The notes: generated by a model from the letters alone, not told the origin. Positions 1,964 through 56,829 are shown, counted from the stretch's first letter. The stretch: DNA of 64,000 nucleotides from an uncultured Candidatus Saccharibacteria bacterium (GCA_964590315.1 CAZPVS010000001.1:42926-106925), one strand, 5' to 3'. Numbers and translations are program-made.

Positions 1964-3335
1964 AACCTAGATTAGAGGACTTAGATAGGGTAGAAGATCG
2001 TTTTTTGCCAAGCCGTAGGCCAACAATAACCCAGAATATCGTTACGATAGTTGCACTGATAAGTGCTGGCACCGACCCGAATTCGACAATGACGATTGCC
2101 GCGGTGGCAGTGACCAGGCCGCCACCCATGAACGGCTCAAAGGCCAGTTGCTTATAGGCAAAACTTTCCTTGATTTTTAAGGAATTGCTGGGGTCAGCTA
2201 GGCGGTTCATGAGCATGCCCGTAGCGGTCATTCCCATTGCCTGTCCATAGTCGGTGATACCGCGTTCGAACCAGTGGTCTTTGAAATATCGTGGCGCCAG
2301 CAACAGGAAGCAGCCGATAATCCAGAGTATGCCGGCAAATCCCAGGGTGATGAATATCGCCAAATTATGACTGATGGCATGCAGTGAAACCGTCGCGATG
2401 GCACTTGCTATCAACAGGTCAAGCGCAATGGTACTAAATACCTGAGCCGTATGTCGCTGTATGAGATGCTGGTGGTGGAATTTCCTGAGCGTCAGTTGCA
2501 GGATCAAGCCGCCGATCATGGCGAGTGGGAACAAGGGAACGAAAGCAAAGAAGCGCACATCGGTCATCCCTTGCAGGAGTACATCTTCAATCACAATCAG
2601 ACCCTTCAACAGTATCCAGCCAATTCCGATGGCAAAGGCAAAGGCCAACGCGTTGATTAGGACGGCTTTCGGATTGGTGTTGAGCCGTTGGGTGAAAGTC
2701 AGGAGATTATAGCCACTGCGCGCAAGATGACGTTGTTGTTCCTTGATGTGTTTCTGATCAGCCCTACTTGAGCGTCGGCTATGGATGTTGATCATGATGA
2801 TGCCAGTGAGTACCGCGGTGATGATGCTGAGTGTCGCCAGGCCGAGAGCGATATCCGTGCCGTCCTCCCAGCCGAGTTTTTCGAAGGTTGGCGCCAGACC
2901 TGCAGCGGTACCGTGACCCCCAGCAAAGCTAATCTCAATCAGTGATCCTGCCAACGCCGGAGCACCGAAATACGGTCCTAGGAACAGAATTGTTAACAGA
3001 ATACCAATGACGTATTGTCCCCACGCCATTGTATTGCCGAACGCGATCATGGGACCGGCAAGCCGCCACATATCTTTCCTGTTCGGGATGACACGCCCCA
3101 GAAAGAGGCCCGCAAATACGATGCTTATCAGATACTGGGGCAACTGTGCCCATATATCGGTCACTTCTGCCGAGATAGTTCCCAGTACCTGAGGCCCAAG
3201 CAAGAGGCCACCAATACCTGCGATTAAGGAACTGGGAATGAAAAATCGCTGGAGAAGACCCGAACCTCGTTTAATATAACGAGCGATTATAAGAACTACG
3301 GCAAGAACGATGAGACTGTCAACGAATGCTGGCAT
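1962..3335 (-). CDS. gltS: sodium/glutamate symporter, GltS family
   Basis: Multi-TM protein. The SFAGGHGTAAGLAP and GQAMGMTATGM blocks align with E. coli GltS motifs (SGGHGTGAAW / GFGLGATPTA). Confidence 0.75.
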   Translation of the reverse strand: MPAFVDSLIVLAVVLIIARYIKRGSGLLQRFFIPSSLIAGIGGLLLGPQVLGTISAEVTDIWAQLPQYLISIVFAGLFLGRVIPNRKDMWRLAGPMIAFGNTMAWGQYVIGILLTILFLGPYFGAPALAGSLIEISFAGGHGTAAGLAPTFEKLGWEDGTDIALGLATLSIITAVLTGIIMINIHSRRSSRADQKHIKEQQRHLARSGYNLLTFTQRLNTNPKAVLINALAFAFAIGIGWILLKGLIVIEDVLLQGMTDVRFFAFVPLFPLAMIGGLILQLTLRKFHHQHLIQRHTAQVFSTIALDLLIASAIATVSLHAISHNLAIFITLGFAGILWIIGCFLLLAPRYFKDHWFERGITDYGQAMGMTATGMLMNRLADPSNSLKIKESFAYKQLAFEPFMGGGLVTATAAIVIVEFGSVPALISATIVTIFWVIVGLRLGKKRSSTLSKSSNLG

Positions 3336-3555
3336 ATAGACTCATCATAAAGCACCTGAGACCGATGGTGCAAATACTCGCCGCTGCAGGGATAGAGATA
3401 CTTATGGTGGGGGTGGTAGGAAAGTTCACGACTGCACCCAGGCTCGGAGTAAACTCCTGCGCTTGGGTTTGTCGACCGAACCTCGGCTACGCCGTCCGGT
3501 TTGACTCCTGCCCACCTCATAGAAAAAGCCCCAGCCAAGGCTGAGACTTATTCTA

Positions 3556-3775
3556 TGGTGGCTTTGTATTCCAAAGCTCGAACCTATTTTAACACAAGAA
3601 ACTGATGTGAGCCGCGCCGCCTGCGCGGGCAAGCCCGCGCTCGCCCCACCAGAAAACACCCTTTACAACTAAAAAGAAATCTAGGCGGGGAAATCAAAAA
3701 AATAGGCAAAGGGTTTTTCTGGTGGTGGCGTGTCGCTGCAATCAGTGGGAGTAAGGAGTTTTTAGGGTTGGGAGG
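3556..3775. repeat. R1a: 220-bp copy of a perfect inverted repeat (partner at 7361-7580)
   Basis: Reverse-complementing 7361-7580 by hand gives an identical string. It starts with tggtgg plus a tRNA 3'-end-like stretch (..cgaacc) and contains the GC hairpin gcgcgggc-aa-gcccgcgc. Confidence 0.85.
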
Positions 3776-3777
3776 TC

Positions 3778-4323
3778 TTACGGCTCATTAAAACTAGAAA
3801 CGTCTACTGGTTCGTAGCCATATTTATCACGTAATATAGCGAATAGCTCTTCATGTTTCAGACCCGAAAGAATACCACCAGCGATTGCATCTTCCAGCGT
3901 GACGTCAGCCGAACAGAAGCTGGGCTGACCAAATTTTTCTTGGTCGTCTGTATTTGCAAACTCAAAGTCCACTAGTACAAGACCGGCGTGCTCCCCGCCG
4001 AATACGTCCAGCTCACCTTCGAAGCCCTCGTACGTCAATGGCACGCGCAATTTTTCAATCCTACGCGTAGAAGCACCCAAGAGTGCATCGAATTCTTCTT
4101 TTGTCAGCCCGATAGTTTCCTCTAGCTGTTGAGACGGATCGTTATCAACAGGTGTTTTTTTGGTGATCTCATACGTATTGCCTTTTTGACGCAGACGCAG
4201 CTTTGGGTGGTCTGATACCTCTGGTATATAAGCATCAATCATACGTGTCGGTTCACCAGATATATACTGCGTGGGTATCTCTGGGCACAAATACGTTTTT
4301 TCAAATTCCATAGAACTAGCCAT
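3778..4323 (-). CDS. CYTH-domain protein (triphosphate tunnel metalloenzyme family)
   Basis: The N-terminal MEFEKTYL start and the overall ~180-aa acidic pattern are typical of the CYTH/CyaB-like fold. The stop lies 2 bp from R1a. Confidence 0.55.
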   Translation of the reverse strand: MASSMEFEKTYLCPEIPTQYISGEPTRMIDAYIPEVSDHPKLRLRQKGNTYEITKKTPVDNDPSQQLEETIGLTKEEFDALLGASTRRIEKLRVPLTYEGFEGELDVFGGEHAGLVLVDFEFANTDDQEKFGQPSFCSADVTLEDAIAGGILSGLKHEELFAILRDKYGYEPVDVSSFNEP

Positions 4324-4425
4324 GATTATAAAAAATCTCCTTTGTTATATTACTTCTTTCATACGGATTTATAATCTATATTGTATCATATTTACCCCTG
4401 TAATGAGATGAGGTATAGTGAATCC

Positions 4426-5484
4426 ATGAAGAATCTTAAAGTTATTGTGGTTGGCATTGGCAAACAGGCCTCAGAAGATCATATCCCTGCATTACTGGCG
4501 TCTGCTAGCTATGAGCTAGTAGGTCTCATCGAAAAAGATACCAACAAACATCACGAGATAAAGAGACAATATGGCGTTGCTGTGCATGCATCAATCGAGG
4601 AAGCTATCGCCACAGATACGCCCGATATTGCTGTCCTGACTCTGCCGCACAGTGAATACCGACATGCGATAGAGCTACTCGCCGCAAAAGGCGTTCACAT
4701 CATCAAAGAAAAGCCATTTGCTGTCAGCCTCGACGAAGCGATACTATATCAACGCTTGATGGAGAAGTATGGCGTCAGTATTCATGTCACGTTGCAACGA
4801 CGCTTCAACCCAATATTCACCAGCGTGCCTCAGCTGATACGTTCGATAGGCAAAGTCTTTGCTATTGAGGGTAAATATACGTTCAATATCGGCCATTTGG
4901 ATGAAGGGTGGCGCGCAAACTCTTACCAGTCAGGTGGCGGTGCACTCATTGACATGGGATACCACATCGTGGATCTACTAGTCTGGTATTTTGATTTGCC
5001 GAGTTATATCACAGCATCGACTGCTGATGGTAATCGAGAAGGTCAAAAATATGATGTCGAAGACACTGTATATCTTAATTTTCGATATGGAGAAGATGAT
5101 GGAGATTCGATGCTAGGCAATGTCATAGTGAGTCGAGTATTTCCCGAGAAGCAAGAATATTTGCATATGTATGGCACGCGAGGTAGTGTGCGCGTAGAAC
5201 GTGGACGAGTTGAACGTTTTGATATCAATGGTGAACCAGTCGAATCACTTGTACGAGATGGGCAGTGGCCATCCGCACTAGTTGAGCAATACGAAGTCTT
5301 CGCGTATGAGATTACCCACGACAAGGATAGTCGTGCAAACGGGAGAGTGGTGACGTTACACGACCACCTAAAGCATATGGCAATCGTAGAAGCCAGCTAT
5401 CAATCTGCCAGAAGTAAATCAACCACCAACGTGCAAAGCATCTACAATGAACTAGTACGGCAACTACAGGAAAGGAATGAATAA
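4426..5484 (+). CDS. Gfo/Idh/MocA family NAD(P)-dependent oxidoreductase
   Basis: N-terminal Rossmann motif VIVVGIGKQASEDHIPAL. The track start at 4381 is TTG; the ATG at 4426 has a gagg RBS. Confidence 0.7.
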   Translation: MKNLKVIVVGIGKQASEDHIPALLASASYELVGLIEKDTNKHHEIKRQYGVAVHASIEEAIATDTPDIAVLTLPHSEYRHAIELLAAKGVHIIKEKPFAVSLDEAILYQRLMEKYGVSIHVTLQRRFNPIFTSVPQLIRSIGKVFAIEGKYTFNIGHLDEGWRANSYQSGGGALIDMGYHIVDLLVWYFDLPSYITASTADGNREGQKYDVEDTVYLNFRYGEDDGDSMLGNVIVSRVFPEKQEYLHMYGTRGSVRVERGRVERFDINGEPVESLVRDGQWPSALVEQYEVFAYEITHDKDSRANGRVVTLHDHLKHMAIVEASYQSARSKSTTNVQSIYNELVRQLQERNE

Positions 5485-5486
5485 GC

Positions 5487-6719
5487 ATGAACTTAGCGAT
5501 TAATGGAGGTGTCCCTGTGTCTGCTGCTCCCCTGTACTTTGACTGGCCGATTATCAACGAGTCTGTTGGACAAGCAATCATCACGCAGCTCCACGAGAGT
5601 ATATCGATTTACGATGACTCAGGCATCTTTCAACAATTTGAGACTGAATTTGCAGAATATCATCATATGCCACATGCACTGCTTGTTAACTCTGGAACAT
5701 CGGGTCTACAAAGTGCGTACTACAGTATGATGTTGCAGCCAGGCGATGAAGTAATATGTCCAGTATACACATTCCACGCTACAGTCAGTCCGATGATGCA
5801 TTTTGGTCTCGTACCTACCATGGTTGACTGCGATATGTATGGACAAATTGATCCTGCGCTTATAGAAAAAGCCATCACTGATAAAACCAAGGCGGTTATT
5901 ATCACGCACATGTGGGGCTATGCCGTCGATATCGAGAGAGTTCGTGAAATTTGCGACAGACACAGCCTGCTCCTTATCGAAGATTGCTCTCATGCGCATG
6001 GTGCAACATTCGGTGGCCAGCCTCTTGGTTCGTTTGGTGATATATCCGTCTGGAGCTTACAGGGTCAGAAAATCATCACTGGCGGCGAAGGTGGTATGAT
6101 GCTATTTAAAAACAAGCAGCACTTCGAACGTGCTGTGCTGTACGGACACTACAATAAGCGCTGCAAACAGCAAGTTGAAGATGATTCGTTGAAAGCGTAT
6201 GCGCTGACAGGTGCTGGCCTAAAGCTGCGAGCAAGTACATTAAATGTCGCGATGGCACGGCATTATTTCAATCAAATTACTACAATCAACACCGAAAAAT
6301 CCCAAAATGCGGAGTGTTTTAGTCGTGGCATTCAATTGATTGACGGCATTCAAGTTCTTGGGCCACGACCTCATTCAACCAATAGCTGGTACGCACAAAA
6401 TATTATGTACGATGAGGCGGTCGTTGGTGTACCGCGCGAGCGGTTCGTCGCCGCACTCCATGCTGAGGGTCTTGTGGAAGCCGATATTCCTGACTCAACT
6501 GGACCAATTCACCGCGAGCCTTTGTTCAATGAGCCGCACGTTGTTTTCCCATACTTATATAATTCGTCACTTCACAACAAGGATCGTACATTTGAACGTG
6601 CGGAATCTTTTTATAGTCGGATCATCAAACTACCCGTCTGGACAGCGACTGACAATGCCACTGATCGATATATAGAGGGATTCAACAAGGTTATCGCCAA
6701 TATTCATGAGTTACAATAA
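5487..6719 (+). CDS. DegT/DnrJ/EryC1/StrS family sugar aminotransferase (PLP-dependent)
   Basis: Fold-type I aminotransferase blocks (IITHMWGY, DCSHAHGAT, LQGQKIITGGEGGM) match the DegT family. Translationally coupled to the neighbouring genes. Confidence 0.8.
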   Translation: MNLAINGGVPVSAAPLYFDWPIINESVGQAIITQLHESISIYDDSGIFQQFETEFAEYHHMPHALLVNSGTSGLQSAYYSMMLQPGDEVICPVYTFHATVSPMMHFGLVPTMVDCDMYGQIDPALIEKAITDKTKAVIITHMWGYAVDIERVREICDRHSLLLIEDCSHAHGATFGGQPLGSFGDISVWSLQGQKIITGGEGGMMLFKNKQHFERAVLYGHYNKRCKQQVEDDSLKAYALTGAGLKLRASTLNVAMARHYFNQITTINTEKSQNAECFSRGIQLIDGIQVLGPRPHSTNSWYAQNIMYDEAVVGVPRERFVAALHAEGLVEADIPDSTGPIHREPLFNEPHVVFPYLYNSSLHNKDRTFERAESFYSRIIKLPVWTATDNATDRYIEGFNKVIANIHELQ

Positions 6720-7374
6720 AGAGGGTTTACTAGTATCATTTGAAGGTCAAGACGGATCCGGTAAATCAACCTTACTTGAGCTGGTCGGTGCCGCACTAGA
6801 AGAGAATGGGTACGCGGTAGAGATTGTGCCTGAGTTTTCAGAGCGAGTAATTGGCTCCTACCTCGTCAATCAACTCACTGAAAACAAGTTCTTGCGCATG
6901 AATCGTGATGGTACGAGCGCCTTGACAGAGACATTGTATATCGTTGCTGACCTTTACTCGCAAGATGAGTTTGATATCAAGCCAGCGCTTGCTCAAGGAA
7001 AAATCGTCTTAAAGGAGAGGCACCTTGATTCGATATTCGCCTGCCAAATTCCAAAAATACTTGCAGACTATCCTGATAGAAGAGAGGGTGAACTAACAGG
7101 GTGGCTTGACAGTCTTTGTAGTAGTCTAAAAGAGCCTGACTTGACAGTATTTCTTGATGTTCCCGAAATTGAGTTACGCAATCGAATAGTCGGTAGAGGT
7201 GAAGCTATCAGCGAGAGCGATGTCACCGTATTCAAGTCAAGACAGGCTATATATGACCGAATTGCAGCCACTGGAATTAAACGATGGATGAGAGCAGATA
7301 ATCGGCATAGCCCCGACCGAACAGCAGAAGTCATTATTAGAAAAGTAGAAGAAATCCTTTCCTCCCAACCCTAA
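6706..7374 (+). CDS. thymidylate-kinase-like P-loop nucleotide kinase
   Basis: VSFEGQDGSGKST matches the Tmk P-loop IxxEGxDGxGKsT. The last four codons and stop (SSQP*) lie inside repeat R1b. Confidence 0.6.
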   Translation: MSYNKEGLLVSFEGQDGSGKSTLLELVGAALEENGYAVEIVPEFSERVIGSYLVNQLTENKFLRMNRDGTSALTETLYIVADLYSQDEFDIKPALAQGKIVLKERHLDSIFACQIPKILADYPDRREGELTGWLDSLCSSLKEPDLTVFLDVPEIELRNRIVGRGEAISESDVTVFKSRQAIYDRIAATGIKRWMRADNRHSPDRTAEVIIRKVEEILSSQP

Positions 7375-7580
7375 AAACTCCTTACTCCCACTGATTGCAG
7401 CGACACGCCACCACCAGAAAAACCCTTTGCCTATTTTTTTGATTTCCCCGCCTAGATTTCTTTTTAGTTGTAAAGGGTGTTTTCTGGTGGGGCGAGCGCG
7501 GGCTTGCCCGCGCAGGCGGCGCGGCTCACATCAGTTTCTTGTGTTAAAATAGGTTCGAGCTTTGGAATACAAAGCCACCA
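7361..7580. repeat. R1b: inverted copy of R1a
   Basis: Exact reverse complement of 3556-3775. It ends with ccacca, which is shared with the start of R2b. Confidence 0.85.
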
Positions 7581-7680
7581 AAATGGAACTTTCTGAGATT
7601 TGGTCGCCCGAATGGGCGGCTTTTTCTCTGGCCGCGCGCAGCGCGAGCCAGCTGTTTGCTTGGGGGGAATTGGGAAATTG
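7575..7680. repeat. R2b: 106-bp inverted copy of the tRNA 3' flank (partner at 9363-9468)
   Basis: Exact reverse complement of 9363-9468 by hand comparison. Confidence 0.8.
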
Positions 7681-7712
7681 ACGCGCCACAGGTGGCGCGT
7701 ATTTTTGTTTTG
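7681..7712 (+). terminator. rho-independent terminator after the cassette operon
   Basis: Palindrome acgcgccac-ag-gtggcgcgt followed by atttttgttttg. Confidence 0.5.
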
Positions 7713-7751
7713 TAAGTCGGCATAGCCGACACGCTCCGCGTCTTCGCTTCG

Positions 7752-7760
7752 TGATATAAT
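7752..7760 (+). promoter_or_regulatory. extended -10 promoter (TGaTATAAT) upstream of the recombinase gene
   Basis: tgatataat sequence. It lies ~135 nt upstream of the ATG at 7896. Confidence 0.4.
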
Positions 7761-7768
7761 GATAAGTG

Positions 7769-7854
7769 CAATACAAATCAATCGGCAAAACTTTTCTATT
7801 TGAGAACTCAAATAGCCGTTTCGCACAAGTTAGGTTTTGCCTGATTTGTATTGC
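7769..7854 (+). promoter_or_regulatory. nested inverted repeats in the recombinase leader; candidate operator, att-like site or structured 5' UTR
   Basis: gcaatacaaatca..gcaaaac pairs with gttttgc..tgatttgtattgc. An inner palindrome ctatttgag-aa-ctcaaatag is enclosed. Confidence 0.4.
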
Positions 7855-7895
7855 AGCGAAGCGGCTTTTTGAGTGCAAGTGGAAAGGTGGCGTAT

Positions 7896-9506
7896 ATGTT
7901 CCCAAAACTCATATATTTCTTGTATGTCCGTAAGAGTACCGATGTAGAGGACAAACAAGTGTTATCTATTGCGGCGCAAATTGCCGAACTCAAAGAGTTC
8001 GCCGCTCGCATGGGCATATACATCGTCGAGGCCATCATAGAAAAGCAGACAGCCAAAAAGCCAGGACGAAAAAAGTTTAACAAAATGCTGGAGCGCATAG
8101 AAAACGGCGAAGCTAACGGGATTTTAGCGTGGATGCCTGATCGACTGTCGCGCAATTCGATAGATAGCGGCAAGATTATTTATATGCTCGACGAGCATGT
8201 TTTACTCGACTTAAAGTTTCCGCATTTCTGGTTTGAGAATACGCCACAAGGAAAATACATGCTGGCTAATGAGTTCAATTCGTCCAAGCAATACGTGGAC
8301 AATTTGTCGGTAAACACCAAGCGAGGGCTACGCCAAAAGGTGCGCGAGGGCTATTACCCAAGTCGTGCGCCGATTGGCTATTATAACGACATCAAGACCA
8401 AGACGGCAAAAGTGGACAAACGGCATGCGCCGATTGTCCGTCAAGCGTTCGAATTGTACGCTGGCGGCGATAAACGATTAGACGAAATCGCGGACTTTCT
8501 GTATGCCAATGGCATACAGACACGCAGCGGTAAAGTGCGCGGCAAGAAAACGACAGGCAAAAAGCCGTATCATAAAAATCGTATCAAGCGTATGCTGACA
8601 AATCCGTTTTATTATGGACATTTTTGCTATCTCGGCGAAATCCATGAGGGCAACCATAAAGCTATTGTCTCGAAACGGCTTTTTGACCAAGTGCAAACGG
8701 TGCTAGAGCGTCGCGGCAAGCCGCGCCACAAGGCGAAGAATGAGCCAAAACCGCTCTGCGGTTTGGTATATTGCTCGTGCGGCATGATGTTCACCTCAGA
8801 ACGTCAGACAAAACGACAGAAAAATGGCAATGTGCATATCTATGATTATTATCGTTGCACGCGCAAGAGCAAGACAGTTGTTTGTCGTGAGCCACATATT
8901 CGCGCCGAAGAGCTGGACAAACAACTGTCTGCGTTACTGGCTGGCTTTTCTTTACCCATTGCGTGGGCGGACAAACTGCGCGAGCTAATGCGCAAGGACG
9001 AGATGAGTGAAAAGGTGGACTATGAACGTATTATCGGGAATGATAAAGACAAAATCGCGCAGTTGTCTGAGAAAATGCAGCGATTGCTTGATGGCTACCT
9101 AGACGGCGACATTGAGCGCGAATTATACCAAGACAAACGCGCGGAATTACTTGGACAGAAGAAACGGCTGGAAGAAAAAATTGAGCAAGCGACGGTGGGC
9201 GTTTTGACGTGGGTCGAACCGATGAATACATGGCTTGAGCGAGCCGTTTCTATCTGTAAAATCGCAAAGAGTGATGACTTACTCGCCAAAAAGTCGCTTT
9301 GCCTCGAAATCTTCGGGTCGAACCTAAAAATGCAAAACAAAAATGTCGTCGCACGCGACGACCAATTTCCCAATTCCCCCCAAGCAAACAGCTGGCTCGC
9401 GCTGCGCGCGGCCAGAGAAAAAGCCGCCCATTCGGGCGACCAAATCTCAGAAAGTTCCATTTTGGTGGGGGTGGTAGGAATCGAACCTACTACCAAGTGG
9501 TTATGA
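7896..9506 (+). CDS. large serine recombinase (resolvase catalytic domain + recombinase domain + zinc ribbon + coiled coil)
   Basis: YVRKSTDVED (Ser nucleophile) and LAWMPDRLSRN resolvase motifs. Zinc ribbon CGLVYCSCG..YYRCTRK..C. Long coiled coil. RBS ggaaaggtgg before the ATG at 7896; the track start 7851 is TTG. The last ~48 codons run through repeat R2a and antisense into the tRNA. Confidence 0.85.
   Translation: MFPKLIYFLYVRKSTDVEDKQVLSIAAQIAELKEFAARMGIYIVEAIIEKQTAKKPGRKKFNKMLERIENGEANGILAWMPDRLSRNSIDSGKIIYMLDEHVLLDLKFPHFWFENTPQGKYMLANEFNSSKQYVDNLSVNTKRGLRQKVREGYYPSRAPIGYYNDIKTKTAKVDKRHAPIVRQAFELYAGGDKRLDEIADFLYANGIQTRSGKVRGKKTTGKKPYHKNRIKRMLTNPFYYGHFCYLGEIHEGNHKAIVSKRLFDQVQTVLERRGKPRHKAKNEPKPLCGLVYCSCGMMFTSERQTKRQKNGNVHIYDYYRCTRKSKTVVCREPHIRAEELDKQLSALLAGFSLPIAWADKLRELMRKDEMSEKVDYERIIGNDKDKIAQLSEKMQRLLDGYLDGDIERELYQDKRAELLGQKKRLEEKIEQATVGVLTWVEPMNTWLERAVSICKIAKSDDLLAKKSLCLEIFGSNLKMQNKNVVARDDQFPNSPQANSWLALRAAREKAAHSGDQISESSILVGVVGIEPTTKWL
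9363..9468. repeat. R2a: native 3' flank of tRNA(CAU), including its CCA end
   Basis: Inverted partner of 7575-7680. Ends at tggtgg, which is the reverse complement of the tRNA ACCACCA terminus. Confidence 0.8.
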
Positions 9507-9538
9507 GCCGCCTGCTCTAACCGATGAGCTACACCCCC
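9463..9538 (-). tRNA. tRNA with CAU anticodon (elongator Met or lysidine-modified Ile2)
   Basis: Reverse complement GGGGGTGTAGCTCATCGGTTAGAGCAGGCGGCTCATAACCACTTGGTAGTAGGTTCGATTCCTACCACCCCCACCA. Cloverleaf has a 7-bp acceptor stem and a GTAGG/CCTAC T-stem, with one mismatch in the anticodon stem. It is close to E. coli tRNA-Ile2. Confidence 0.8.
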
Positions 9539-9613
9539 TCGATTAGAAACTTAATCGTTTCTGATAGTATTGTAACAGAGGAGAGTATAGCATTTAATGT
9601 ATAATTAACTCCA

Positions 9614-10066
9614 GTGATGATAGAAAAAATCAAAAAATATCAGCATTCAACGCTCGTACAGCAATTTCGAGACATTCGGTTTGTCGGCTTCGTGGTCTTT
9701 GGCATCCTTGTTTTGTTGGTGAGCTGGAGCGGTGTTTCGGTAATTGAGACGAATTATGAGCTCCAGAAGCAAGTTTCACAGCTTGAGCAAGAGATTGATG
9801 TTGCAGAACTTGAGAACAACAACCTTCGTTTGCAAAACGAATACTACAACAGCACACAATACCTGGAGTTGACCGCGCGGCGGCAATTTGGGAAAGGCCT
9901 ACCAGGAGAAACATTACTGTTGGTGCCCGATACGGTCGCGCTTAAATACACCAAGGACATATCCAAAGCAGTTGAAGAAAGCACACGTGAGCCACTACTC
10001 ACCAAGCCGCGATATCAGCAGAATCTTGAGGCTTGGATAGACTTCTTTACGCACCGTGATAGCTAA
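9614..10066 (+). CDS. septum formation initiator family protein (FtsB/DivIC-like)
   Basis: Single N-terminal TM helix followed by a coiled coil (ELQKQVSQLEQEIDVAELENNNLRLQNEY). Confidence 0.55.
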   Translation: MMIEKIKKYQHSTLVQQFRDIRFVGFVVFGILVLLVSWSGVSVIETNYELQKQVSQLEQEIDVAELENNNLRLQNEYYNSTQYLELTARRQFGKGLPGETLLLVPDTVALKYTKDISKAVEESTREPLLTKPRYQQNLEAWIDFFTHRDS

Positions 10067-10148
10067 GATTGACATAAGTACCTCTGTTTGATACTATATG
10101 TCAGCTAAACAGCGGCAGGAACGGGCGAATGTCCGTTCCTGCAACTAC

Positions 10149-10223
10149 CGCGGGGTAGAGCAGTGGCAGCTCGTGTGGCTCATAACCACAAGGTCGCAGG
10201 TTCGAGTCCTGCCCCCGCTACCA
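10149..10223 (+). tRNA. tRNA-Met (CAU), initiator-like
   Basis: CGCGGGGTAGAGCAGTGGCAGCTCGTGTGGCTCATAACCACAAGGTCGCAGGTTCGAGTCCTGCCCCCGCTACCA. Near-identical in layout to E. coli tRNA-fMet, including the unpaired 1:72 position (C:U). Confidence 0.85.
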
Positions 10224-11282: not shown

Positions 11283-12152
11283 ATGTGGTTTATTTACGCC
11301 CTACTTGGAGCAATCGGTAAGTCTTACTCGGGATTTTTTAGGAAGAAAATCGCCAAAAGTGTCAGTGGCTCAATGTACATCTGGATTGGGTATACGTTAA
11401 TACTTGTTGTTATGACGCCCTTCATGGTTCCACAAGCTTCAGCTGTTATCGATTCGTTGGTGAAATACCCGCTTGTTGTATTTGGAGCTGCCTTCTCTTA
11501 CATGGTGGCTACTCAATTAAACCTTGAGGCTTTAAAGCGTGAGGACTTATCCTATACAGCACCTTTAAATGCTTTTGTACCTGTCTTCACACTCGCAATA
11601 GCCGTTCCTATTCTTGGTGAAACACCGCCCAGGTTTGGCTTACTTGGCATAGCAATCGTTGTAGCAGGCGCCTACATTGTTAGTATTAAGCCTGAACGAA
11701 TACATTGGTATGACCCCCTTAAGCGATTGGCTACCAGTACTGGGGCGCAGCTAACACTGGGTGTAGCACTTTGCTATGCAATCAACACAATTCTTATGAA
11801 GGTTCTAACAAATAACGACTTTAACGCTTTTGTAGTTTTATACGTAACCACGCTCGTTGGGTGGCTACTACTTATTAACGTACCTATATCTCGTAGAAAT
11901 GAGTTTAAGGAGATTAAAAGTTCTGACAGGTTCTCAGTCCTAGGTGGTAGTTTAGGCTCATTTGCTGGTAGCTTTTTCCATATTCTTGCGCTATCAAACA
12001 CATACACCAGTTATGCAACTGCAGTACGCCGTCTTGATTCTGTAATATCAGTTCTACTGGGCTGGCGCTTCTTAAAAGAGAAAAGTATTCGTGTTAAGTT
12101 AGTGGGCAGCATTGTTATGACCATCGGTGCTGCTGTAATGCTAGTTGCCTAG
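11283..12152 (+). CDS. EamA/DMT-superfamily transporter
   Basis: Ten TM helices with a duplicated EamA-domain pattern (GETPPRFGLLGIAIVVAGAYIV). Confidence 0.7.
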   Translation: MWFIYALLGAIGKSYSGFFRKKIAKSVSGSMYIWIGYTLILVVMTPFMVPQASAVIDSLVKYPLVVFGAAFSYMVATQLNLEALKREDLSYTAPLNAFVPVFTLAIAVPILGETPPRFGLLGIAIVVAGAYIVSIKPERIHWYDPLKRLATSTGAQLTLGVALCYAINTILMKVLTNNDFNAFVVLYVTTLVGWLLLINVPISRRNEFKEIKSSDRFSVLGGSLGSFAGSFFHILALSNTYTSYATAVRRLDSVISVLLGWRFLKEKSIRVKLVGSIVMTIGAAVMLVA

Positions 12153-23668: not shown

Positions 23669-23782
23669 ACAATTCAGAACATTTTTGGTAGCGGCGACTA
23701 GGCTTGAACTAGTGACCTCAGGCTTATGAGTCCTGCGCTCTAACCAGCTGAGCTACGCCGCCCCAAAAATGTTCTGAATTGT
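23669..23782. repeat. 18-bp inverted repeats immediately flanking the tRNA-Met gene
   Basis: acaattcagaacattttt on one side and aaaaatgttctgaattgt on the other. Confidence 0.5.
23686..23762 (-). tRNA. tRNA-Met (CAU), elongator-like
   Basis: Reverse complement GGCGGCGTAGCTCAGCTGGTTAGAGCGCAGGACTCATAAGCCTGAGGTCACTAGTTCAAGCCTAGTCGCCGCTACCA. Closely resembles E. coli elongator tRNA-Met. Confidence 0.8.
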
Positions 23783-56752: not shown

Positions 56753-56829
56753 TGGAGGGTCCAGTGGGACTCGAACCCACGACACCCTGCTTAAAAGGCA
56801 GGTGCTCTAACCGGCTGAGCTATGGACCC
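56753..56829 (-). tRNA. tRNA-Lys (UUU)
   Basis: Reverse complement GGGTCCATAGCTCAGCCGGTTAGAGCACCTGCCTTTTAAGCAGGGTGTCGTGGGTTCGAGTCCCACTGGACCCTCCA. Perfect anticodon stem CCTGC/GCAGG. Confidence 0.85.

Follow-up and report, generated by a model that had tools for sequence, protein, structure and literature searches.

Small cargo elements that are moved by a large serine recombinase (LSR) alone are represented by Tn4451/Tn4453, with the recombinase TnpX, and by Tn5397, with TndX. They pass through a circular intermediate and enter several targets that resemble the circle joint, short sequences centred on GA/TG. Here we analyze positions 3556-9538 of a 64,000-nt stretch of DNA from an uncultured Candidatus Saccharibacteria bacterium (GCA_964590315.1 CAZPVS010000001.1:42926-106925), which as a whole we call the window. 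At this locus two abutting pairs of perfect inverted repeats, R1 and R2, bracket a cargo segment and an LSR gene beside a tRNA-Met gene. We conclude that 3556-9468 is very probably an integrated, small, non-replicative cargo element, mobilised by its LSR and inserted conservatively within the CCA end of the tRNA-Met. It resembles the transposons above in being small, cargo-carrying and LSR-moved; as they are described, however, they have no tRNA-end targets, no long internal inverted repeat, and no recombinase gene that spans the joint in the same way.

Serine integrases are prized for genome engineering as simple and directional enzymes, and we know of none that targets tRNA genes. With the A118/LI Int, SPbeta SprA, phiC31 and Bxb1 integrases the window enzyme and its relatives share the domain architecture, conservative insertion with a short core, and a shift of 4-5 bp between half-sites. 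Unlike the LSRs of phages and integrative conjugative elements, the window family hits tRNA CCA ends, with many tRNAs per enzyme. It also has only one conserved attB half-site and no evident gene for a recombination directionality factor (RDF), its integrase open reading frame (ORF) runs across attP, and a second, inverted copy of attP is always carried. The element can be counted as a new form among the LSR integrative elements, unusual in several respects.

Tyrosine recombinases, too, integrate elements beside tRNA genes. Of 937 tycheposons of Prochlorococcus, 910 have a tyrosine recombinase; a given integrase serves one tRNA only, and many elements carry replication genes (bioRxiv 10.1101/2020.12.28.424599). 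Tycheposons are like the window family as small carriers of cargo and defence genes in streamlined genomes, adjacent to tRNA genes, sometimes in tandem, and building islands; they are not known to carry an inverted duplicate of attP. The window element also differs from tRNA islands made by tyrosine integrases in that its enzyme is an LSR, and its far end has a 5-6 bp core followed by a mimic and holds no tRNA fragment.

Target site and half-sites

A repeat search of the window finds the R1 arms at 3556-3775 (R1a, plus strand) and 7361-7580 (R1b, minus strand), 220 nt long and 100% complementary, and the R2 arms at 7575-7680 (R2b, minus strand) and 9363-9468 (R2a, plus strand), 106 nt long and again 100% complementary. 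The inner copies overlap by the six bases CCACCA at 7575-7580. Perfect inverted repeats of 220 and 106 nt exclude a chance origin. Both ARAGORN and Rfam place tRNA-Met(CAT) at 9463-9538 on the minus strand, so that R2a ends 6 nt into its CCA end. The first bases of R1, read directly, are TGGTGG...CGAACC. An earlier note on this DNA had described these repeats, their perfect identity and their junction at CCACCA beside the tRNA, all of which the search reproduces exactly, and it had taken the start of R1 for a mimic of a tRNA 3' end, which agrees with the half-site assignment given below.

Evidence on how the repeats came to lie there is from a sister element (L043), for which ten conspecific contigs lack the insertion while the flanking SBP protein is 99-100% identical. 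With a slash at the point of insertion, the empty allele in all ten contigs reads ...GTGCACCA/AATATACATC, and the occupied allele reads ...GTGCACCA/r2'...r1'...CCACCA/AATATACATC. Read over a greater length, the empty site is ...TTCAGTGCACCA/AATATACATCATG; the left junction of the occupied allele is ...TTCAGTGCACCA/TTTCGGAAC, entering r2', and the right junction is ...TTGCCACCA/AATATACATCATG, which leaves r1' and enters the trailer. The 6.35-kb block that contains both repeat pairs is one precise insertion with the 5-bp CACCA on each side, that is, with one short core per end, as in a conservative attP x attB recombination. Since it is a single precise insertion, the "two pairs" of repeats reduce to one inverted repeat of about 320 bp (R2-core-R1, the attP region), one copy of which has been split into attL and attR.

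By the same logic the window element spans 3556-9468 (5.9 kb), with attL at 3556, attR at 9463-9468 and an inverted attP at 7575-7580. Comparison of the empty and occupied sister alleles identifies the flank outside R1a as the original trailer of the tRNA, and in 18 aligned elements this flank is usually a hairpin followed by a T-run, the original tRNA terminator. In the window the terminator scan finds an intrinsic terminator at 3526-3549 on the minus strand, that of the native tRNA-Met trailer, which the insertion displaced from its gene and which forms the unspecific B side of attL. The earlier note had called R2 the native 3' flank of the tRNA. This turns out to be wrong: R2 holds the P arm, 35 LSR codons and a terminator, and the native trailer is 3526-3555, left of R1a. 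On the other hand, its suggestion of an LSR-driven integrative element at a tRNA 3' end is borne out by the empty sister sites and by the architecture of the family.

In each of the 18 aligned elements there are three sites to compare: native flank-core-R1 at site 1, R2-core-R1 at the internal, inverted site 2, and R2-core-tRNA at site 3. Within one element these sites have nothing in common but TGG(T/A)(G/C), which is the CCA end of the tRNA read on the other strand plus 1-3 bases; the crossover hence lies within or directly beside CCA. R1 begins with TGGTG, then a short hairpin, CGAACC and TATTT. Counted from the T of TGG, the motif (C/T)GAAC begins at +24 in 57 of 61 internal sites, and the T-loop CGAA(C) of any tRNA begins at +20. 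In the LI and SPbeta integrases, the motif of the second DNA-binding domain (DBD2, the zinc ribbon) lies 4-5 bp nearer the centre in attB than in attP (PMC11722253). The 4-bp shift of CGAAC matches this geometry, and it makes the start of R1 a P'-type and the tRNA 3' end a B'-type half-site. Only the P'/B' pair has this shift; no motif is common to the P and B arms, and the B half-site on the side of the tRNA trailer is not conserved.

In window coordinates, R1a has its core TGGTGG at 3556-3561 and its P'-type half-site with CGAAC at 3579-3583. R2a forms the P arm of attR; its core TGGTGG is 9463-9468, and the T-loop and CCA end of the intact tRNA-Met gene are the B' half-site. The internal attP copy, around the core at 7575-7580, is intact and comprises the silent LSR 3' end with its flanks. 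From these alignments we infer that the zinc ribbon of the LSR may read the universal T-loop, and, if it does, any tRNA gene with an encoded CCA would be a target.

Both repeats also contain GC-rich hairpins, in R1 at 3610-3645, in R2 at 9385-9441, and in the inverted copies. Their stems vary between elements by compensatory substitution (for example GCGCGGGCAAGCCCGCGC vs. GTCCGCCGAAAAGGCGGAC), and they look like structural elements around the att core, those of R2 lying within the LSR reading frame. The distal half of R1 (3648-3729, and its copy in R1b) is a long imperfect palindrome, CCACCAGAAAACACCCTTT ... AAAGGGTTTTTCTGGTGG, whose arms in R1a are 3648-3666 and 3711-3729. Compared with 12 other elements, the loop of this palindrome (3667-3711, 45 nt) is turned round in R1a and R1b alike. 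From one element to another, R1 and R2 diverge by 4-25%. The loop is in effect a nested mini-inversion that was homogenised between the R1 copies, so that the copies of a repeat undergo concerted evolution; the recent or ongoing homogenisation proposed in the earlier note finds support here. Gene conversion would be the process that keeps the copies identical.

The family and its cargo

To put the window element in context, a genome scan with one genome per species gave 42 loci with LSR relatives, almost all in metagenome-assembled genomes of Saccharibacteria, and a metagenome scan gave at least 564 LSR relatives, 80 of which were kept. After removal of redundant contigs there are 125 loci with a related LSR, almost all from Saccharibacteria.

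About 25 of the 42 genome loci have the order R1, cargo, R1'/R2', LSR, R2 and a tRNA on the opposite strand, with R1' and R2' overlapping by 5-11 nt. An R2 pair flanks the LSR in 92/125 loci, and most of the others are cut by contig ends. The outer R2 end coincides with a tRNA CCA end in 72/125 loci, covering 12 amino-acid isotypes and 22 anticodons. A complete R1 pair is present in 27/125 loci, with lengths of 51-414 nt and mostly 99-100% identity, and the P' motif adjoins R2b even where R1a lies beyond the contig. Because repeats lie on both sides of the gene, many contigs hold the LSR only, in about 2 kb, and the element repeats thereby explain why Saccharibacteria assemblies break at recombinase contigs of that size. 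The inverted internal copy is constant across the family, down to about 50% LSR identity, and the inverted duplication that the earlier note had placed after integration, as a local event, can therefore be set aside.

LSR bodies that are 100% identical carry at least five different C-terminal tails, which derive from 3-4 different tRNAs or from R1; one enzyme thus uses many tRNAs and has moved recently. Taken together, the family appears to read the universal T-loop and the CCA end, at least 22 different tRNAs with one enzyme. Such targets would be natural multi-site landing pads, and the enzymes are candidate genetic tools for Saccharibacteria and other bacteria of the candidate phyla radiation, which are hard to manipulate. 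We found no description of these elements in the literature searched, and they apparently form a large, undescribed family of LSR elements at tRNA ends of Saccharibacteria.

Some copies of the element have decayed (L004, L030 and L033). As a separate observation, the elements of L016 (at 11545-11580) and of L004 (downstream of the LSR remnant) sit at the same non-tRNA sequence, TGGTGCGGA(A/G)(T/C)TACAGAA..., which has no match in Rfam. This target is apparently either a pseudo-attB or a tRNA-like end that has escaped recognition.

There are also tandem arrays. L159 (6675-6943) and L160 (2130-2354) have, downstream of the LSR, an R2-core-R1* site whose R1* is unlike the element's own R1. An occupied tRNA therefore stays a target, and islands can grow by accretion. 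LSR clusters with an R1-encoded tail were considered as evidence of circles, and that interpretation was dropped: the two cases that can be resolved are tandem arrays with different R1.

The cargo of the window element consists of a 181-aa ORF with a weak CYTH-like match (3778-4323, minus strand), followed on the plus strand by a GFO/IDH/MocA-type oxidoreductase (4381-5484), a DegT/DnrJ/EryC1-type sugar aminotransferase (5487-6719) and a protein of the thymidylate-kinase family (6706-7374), whose ORF ends 14 nt inside R1b. The oxidoreductase and the aminotransferase would make a sugar-nucleotide amination pair, as in the synthesis of surface glycans. Elsewhere in the family we find type I, II and III restriction-modification systems, AAA_13/AAA_15 ATPases, DUF4411 with an M78 peptidase, ABC-F and membrane proteins. 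Cargo lies in either orientation and has almost nothing in common between elements; most of it is restriction-modification or defence, and the family is a main vehicle of such cassettes in genomes that are ultra-small and reduced. None of the cargoes examined contains genes for replication or partition. One cargo, an N6_N4 methylase, a HinfI-type endonuclease, DUF4411 and an M78 peptidase (L043/L153/L154), is found on clearly different LSR lineages (clusters P0102 and P0043); elements thus seem to swap cargo and recombinase modules.

Recombinase, orientation and competing readings

The LSR of the window (ORF 7896-9506, plus strand, 536 aa) has an N-terminal Resolvase domain (PF00239, residues 23-168, E = 9e-16), with the Ser-nucleophile motif YxRxS (FLYVRKSTD), which is invariant in alignments A1 and A3. 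Next come the Recombinase domain PF07508 and Zn_ribbon_recom PF13408, that is, the first DNA-binding domain and the zinc-ribbon/coiled-coil DBD2 of an LSR. The nearest solved structure in a PDB search is the C-terminal domain of the A118 integrase (4KIS/6DNW, E = 3e-11). An AlphaFold model has long helices at 350-453 and C-terminal helices at 494-507 and 516-531 (predicted local distance difference test, pLDDT, 65-84), the last of which bridges the crossover point. A look-up of the exact window protein returned no record.

The gene is preceded by a promoter with an extended -10 box, TGATATAAT, at 7752-7760 on the plus strand (TAnnnT invariant in 41 loci, alignment A2), and by a conserved, pseudoknotted 5' leader RNA at 7767-7873 on the same strand. 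The leader folds into a long P1/P2 hairpin, and the loop of this hairpin forms a further helix, P3, with a 3' segment that has a U-run at its end. Over 41 loci, 27/40 pairs show compensatory changes, and the covariation is 0.385 compared with at most 0.155 in slid controls. The z value for the leader is -6.8. P3 by itself is 94.7% paired, with compensatory changes in 10/16 pairs. A distant subclade does not have the leader. An Rfam search of 3300-9700 reported tRNA only, and no family for the leader, R1 or R2. The pseudoknotted leader is a new candidate regulatory RNA.

The LSR ORF has no stop before R2a. Its body runs to 9362, and it continues through R2a (35 codons), the core and 12 codons of antisense tRNA. 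In all elements with an intact gene the frame passes R2 (35 codons) and the core in the same way. In the internal copy, and wherever else R2 leads into R1, the frame goes on for 14-15 codons to a stop. In the window, R1a has 15 such codons and a stop at 3558-3605 (plus strand), which would end the LSR ORF if R2 were joined to it. The silent inverted copy of the last 49 LSR codons plus stop (R2, core and the start of R1; 7531-7680, minus strand) translates as QFPNSPQ...ILVALYSKARTYFNTRN and then the stop. The in-frame stop in R1 keeps a constant position in the alignment, with TGA, TAA and TAG interchanging, and the tail peptide encoded by R1 is conserved as x[FLI]Y[AS]x[AIV]RTxF. The native-type tail of the window ends in ...ILVALYSKARTYFNTRN, and the tRNA-encoded one in ...ILVGVVGIEPTTKWL; because the antisense-tRNA tail reads the T-loop, the usual tail of an integrated LSR often has G[IL]EP. 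The silent inverted 3' copy is open in 19/19 elements, including those in which the R2 copies have diverged.

Is R2 then under selection as coding sequence? We rejected R2 as cleanly coding. R2 differences by codon position are 1391/1365/1181, with no excess at the third position, and the other two frames across R2-core-R1 are often open too. The differences in the R1-encoded tail (382/275/431) give a mild coding signature only, and, since the same bases form the P' site, constraint on protein and on DNA cannot be separated there. The main constraint on R2 is at the DNA level, where it forms the P arm and two hairpins whose stems show compensatory changes. We likewise rejected translation of the silent copy into a small protein with the C-terminus of the LSR: the open stretch upstream is 0-76 codons, with no conserved start.

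The insertion leaves the tRNA-Met intact, and the element provides it with a new terminator, in the window the R2a terminator at 9441-9422 on the minus strand, now serving the tRNA. If attL and attR recombined, the excised DNA would be a circle with an attP copy at each boundary between its cargo and recombinase segments, the two copies being inverted. The segments would flip rarely, through the action of RecA on the repeats or through the LSR, which would recombine the internal attP with its own attR; attR retains the only specific half-site of an attB.

The yeast 2-micron plasmid has a comparable layout: its recombinase Flp is a tyrosine enzyme, the FRT sites lie inside 599-bp inverted repeats, and the plasmid replicates, with inversion driving copy-number amplification. 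The predicted circle would share with it two identical inverted repeats that contain recombination sites, and two unique segments, one of them encoding the recombinase; in addition, the segments are found in both relative orientations. The window family differs in its serine enzyme, in having no replication or partition genes, and in that no circular contig was found.

Both segments are inverted between some relatives. The recombinase segments of L016 and L043 are 90% identical in opposite orientation, while R1 (92%), R2 (96%) and 2.1 kb of cargo (94%) are co-oriented; thus the recombinase segment alone has inverted. L153 and L154 have an identical LSR protein and the same cargo in opposite orientations, so the cargo has probably inverted between relatives. 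The LSR reads toward the tRNA in 72 loci and away from it only in the L043 lineage, an abundant human oral TM7. The R1-encoded (native) tail is present in 13/120 of the closest LSR protein clusters.

Several observations weigh against the view of the window element as an LSR-mobilised insertion. We found no circular form, no contig in which the recombinase segment has the same R1 to its left and its right, and no relatives in a viral contig collection scanned with the LSR. Random integration of a circle with two attP copies predicts that both orientations are common, and the observed bias is about 9:1 or more, for which a further assumption would have to be made. The L153/L154 cargo inversion rests on contigs in which R1 (173 bp) exceeds the assembler k-mer. 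The P arm (R2) has no clear symmetry to the P' arm, and no convincing symmetric half-site motif was seen. No RDF gene is evident, the recombinase segment holding only the LSR and the cargo having no conserved gene, although the diversity of RDFs limits any absence judged by sequence. Finally, the empty allele was found for the sister L043, but not for the window locus, where a search through the neighbouring glutamate symporter gave closest homologues (71-75% identity) whose surroundings do not match.

Given an inverted attP copy that is always present and an ORF that extends over the crossover, the question arises how an LSR element without an RDF is controlled. One possible answer, which extends the insertion reading and which we put forward only tentatively, is that the recombinase disarms itself. 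The LSR would be complete only with R2 and R1 joined. Integration through the attP copy at the end of the gene, or inversion of the recombinase segment by the LSR with the internal attP and attR as sites, would put antisense tRNA in place of its last 14 codons and so switch it off; a rare inversion back, joining the gene to its silent spare 3' end, would re-arm it, so that directionality would come from gene rearrangement and not from an RDF. If true, this would be RDF-free directionality for a serine integrase, beside recognition of the T-loop and CCA at every tRNA gene. An arrangement of this kind in mycobacteriophages is said to provide integration-dependent immunity (Broussard and colleagues, 2013), with attP inside the repressor gene and a tyrosine integrase. 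There too the crossover lies inside an ORF and integration changes a C-terminus, but the protein altered is the repressor, and there is no inverted spare copy.

Much of what is described above is consistent with such a switch: an ORF that crosses the core in every element, the R1 stop at constant position with its conserved tail peptide, the silent copy open in 19/19 elements despite R2 divergence, and the AlphaFold helix 516-531 across the crossover. The orientation count of 72:1 by locus and the native tail in only 13/120 clusters agree with it, there is no RDF candidate because the recombinase segment has the LSR only and cargo varies, and the tandem arrays show that a junction with a single tRNA-type half-site can be a target. 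On the other side, R2 has no codon-position signature and that of the tail is mild, the other two frames are often open, and the tail sequence doubles as a P' DNA site. Moreover, one abundant oral species has the flipped state with the native tail stably fixed across many samples, and canonical LSRs do not synapse attP with attR.

We consider it unlikely that the locus is a shufflon-like or phase-variation system of multiple inversions, in which the LSR mainly flips the segments to vary expression and the link to the tRNA is incidental. Inverted repeats around both segments beside a serine recombinase, and the inversion of both segments between relatives, are what such a system would have. The precise presence/absence polymorphism with its 5-bp core, however, is that of an insertion element, and the same LSR, unchanged in sequence, is found at different tRNAs. 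The repeats enclose the cargo operons completely, so that flipping leaves promoters and coding sequence unchanged. The orientation bias is strong, and contigs assembled with k=141 run through R2 unbranched in five samples; R2 (105 bp) is shorter than this k-mer, and such contigs cross it unambiguously. The earlier note held that both segments can flip, and of this the rare natural inversions stand (L016/L043, and L153/L154 with the assembly caveat), but not the shufflon-like locus, given 72 loci in one orientation and one lineage in the other.

The described inversion systems share some features with the window family and differ in others. The serine invertases Hin, Gin and Cin (the latter of the P1 C segment, with 0.6-kb repeats) have about 190 aa and a C-terminal helix-turn-helix, work with an enhancer and Fis, and switch host range or antigens frequently. 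They are like the window family in having inverted repeats with terminal crossover sites beside a serine recombinase, and in that inversion alters C-terminal coding. The window enzyme, however, is a 536-aa LSR and not a Hin/Gin-type invertase, its inversions are rare, and it is the recombinase's own tail that changes. In the R64 shufflon the tyrosine recombinase Rci acts on multiple short sfx repeats and shuffles C-terminal segments; here the enzyme is a serine recombinase, there are only two repeat families, and there are no alternative C-terminal cassettes of a host gene.

That the repeats are an assembly chimera or a private inverted duplication in this genome is hardly credible: perfect long inverted repeats are indeed what fold-back misassembly or a very recent duplication would give, but about 90 independent contigs have the parts in this order while their sequences, cargo and tRNAs differ, which refutes it for the family. 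These contigs come from NCBI, ENA, JGI and Logan, and include both MEGAHIT and SPAdes assemblies; R2 at 105 bp is crossed unambiguously at k=141. We also considered that fold-back of single strands after DNA uptake might rebuild a duplex attP; this was rejected, as recombination would leave hairpin-capped chromosome ends.

Neighbouring features

In the window, R2b contains a plus-strand terminator at 7602-7621 that faces the cargo, and a second one follows at 7681-7700. The terminator scan finds further terminators just internal to each R2 copy.

Left of the LSR element, 150 bp from R1a, an 18-nt exact copy of the tRNA-Met 3' end (TGGTGGGGGTGGTAGGAA) lies at 3405-3422; the window has 2 exact matches to it, where 0 are expected by chance. 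It is followed by 133 bp without a homologue in other elements. We tried 3423-3555 as a decayed R1 or R2 and rejected it, since it has no homology to other elements. The region 3405-3555 resembles a scar left by an earlier insertion of another kind, which brought in the tRNA fragment and is unrelated to the LSR element.

Direct repeats also follow the other two minus-strand tRNA genes of the window, those of tRNA-Met (23686-23762) and tRNA-Lys (56753-56829), with the pairs 22253-22303/23523-23573, 23563-23604/23686-23727 and 56528-56579/56722-56773. These are copies of tRNA 3' parts together with nearby terminator-like sequence, 120-1270 bp away, and may be further integration scars at tRNA ends, formed without an LSR. 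To the right of the target tRNA, 9614-10223 holds a gene for a DivIC-like septum protein and a second, divergent tRNA-Met(CAT) at 10149-10223, and the two tRNA-Met genes together form an inverted repeat (I3) of 47 nt and 81% identity.

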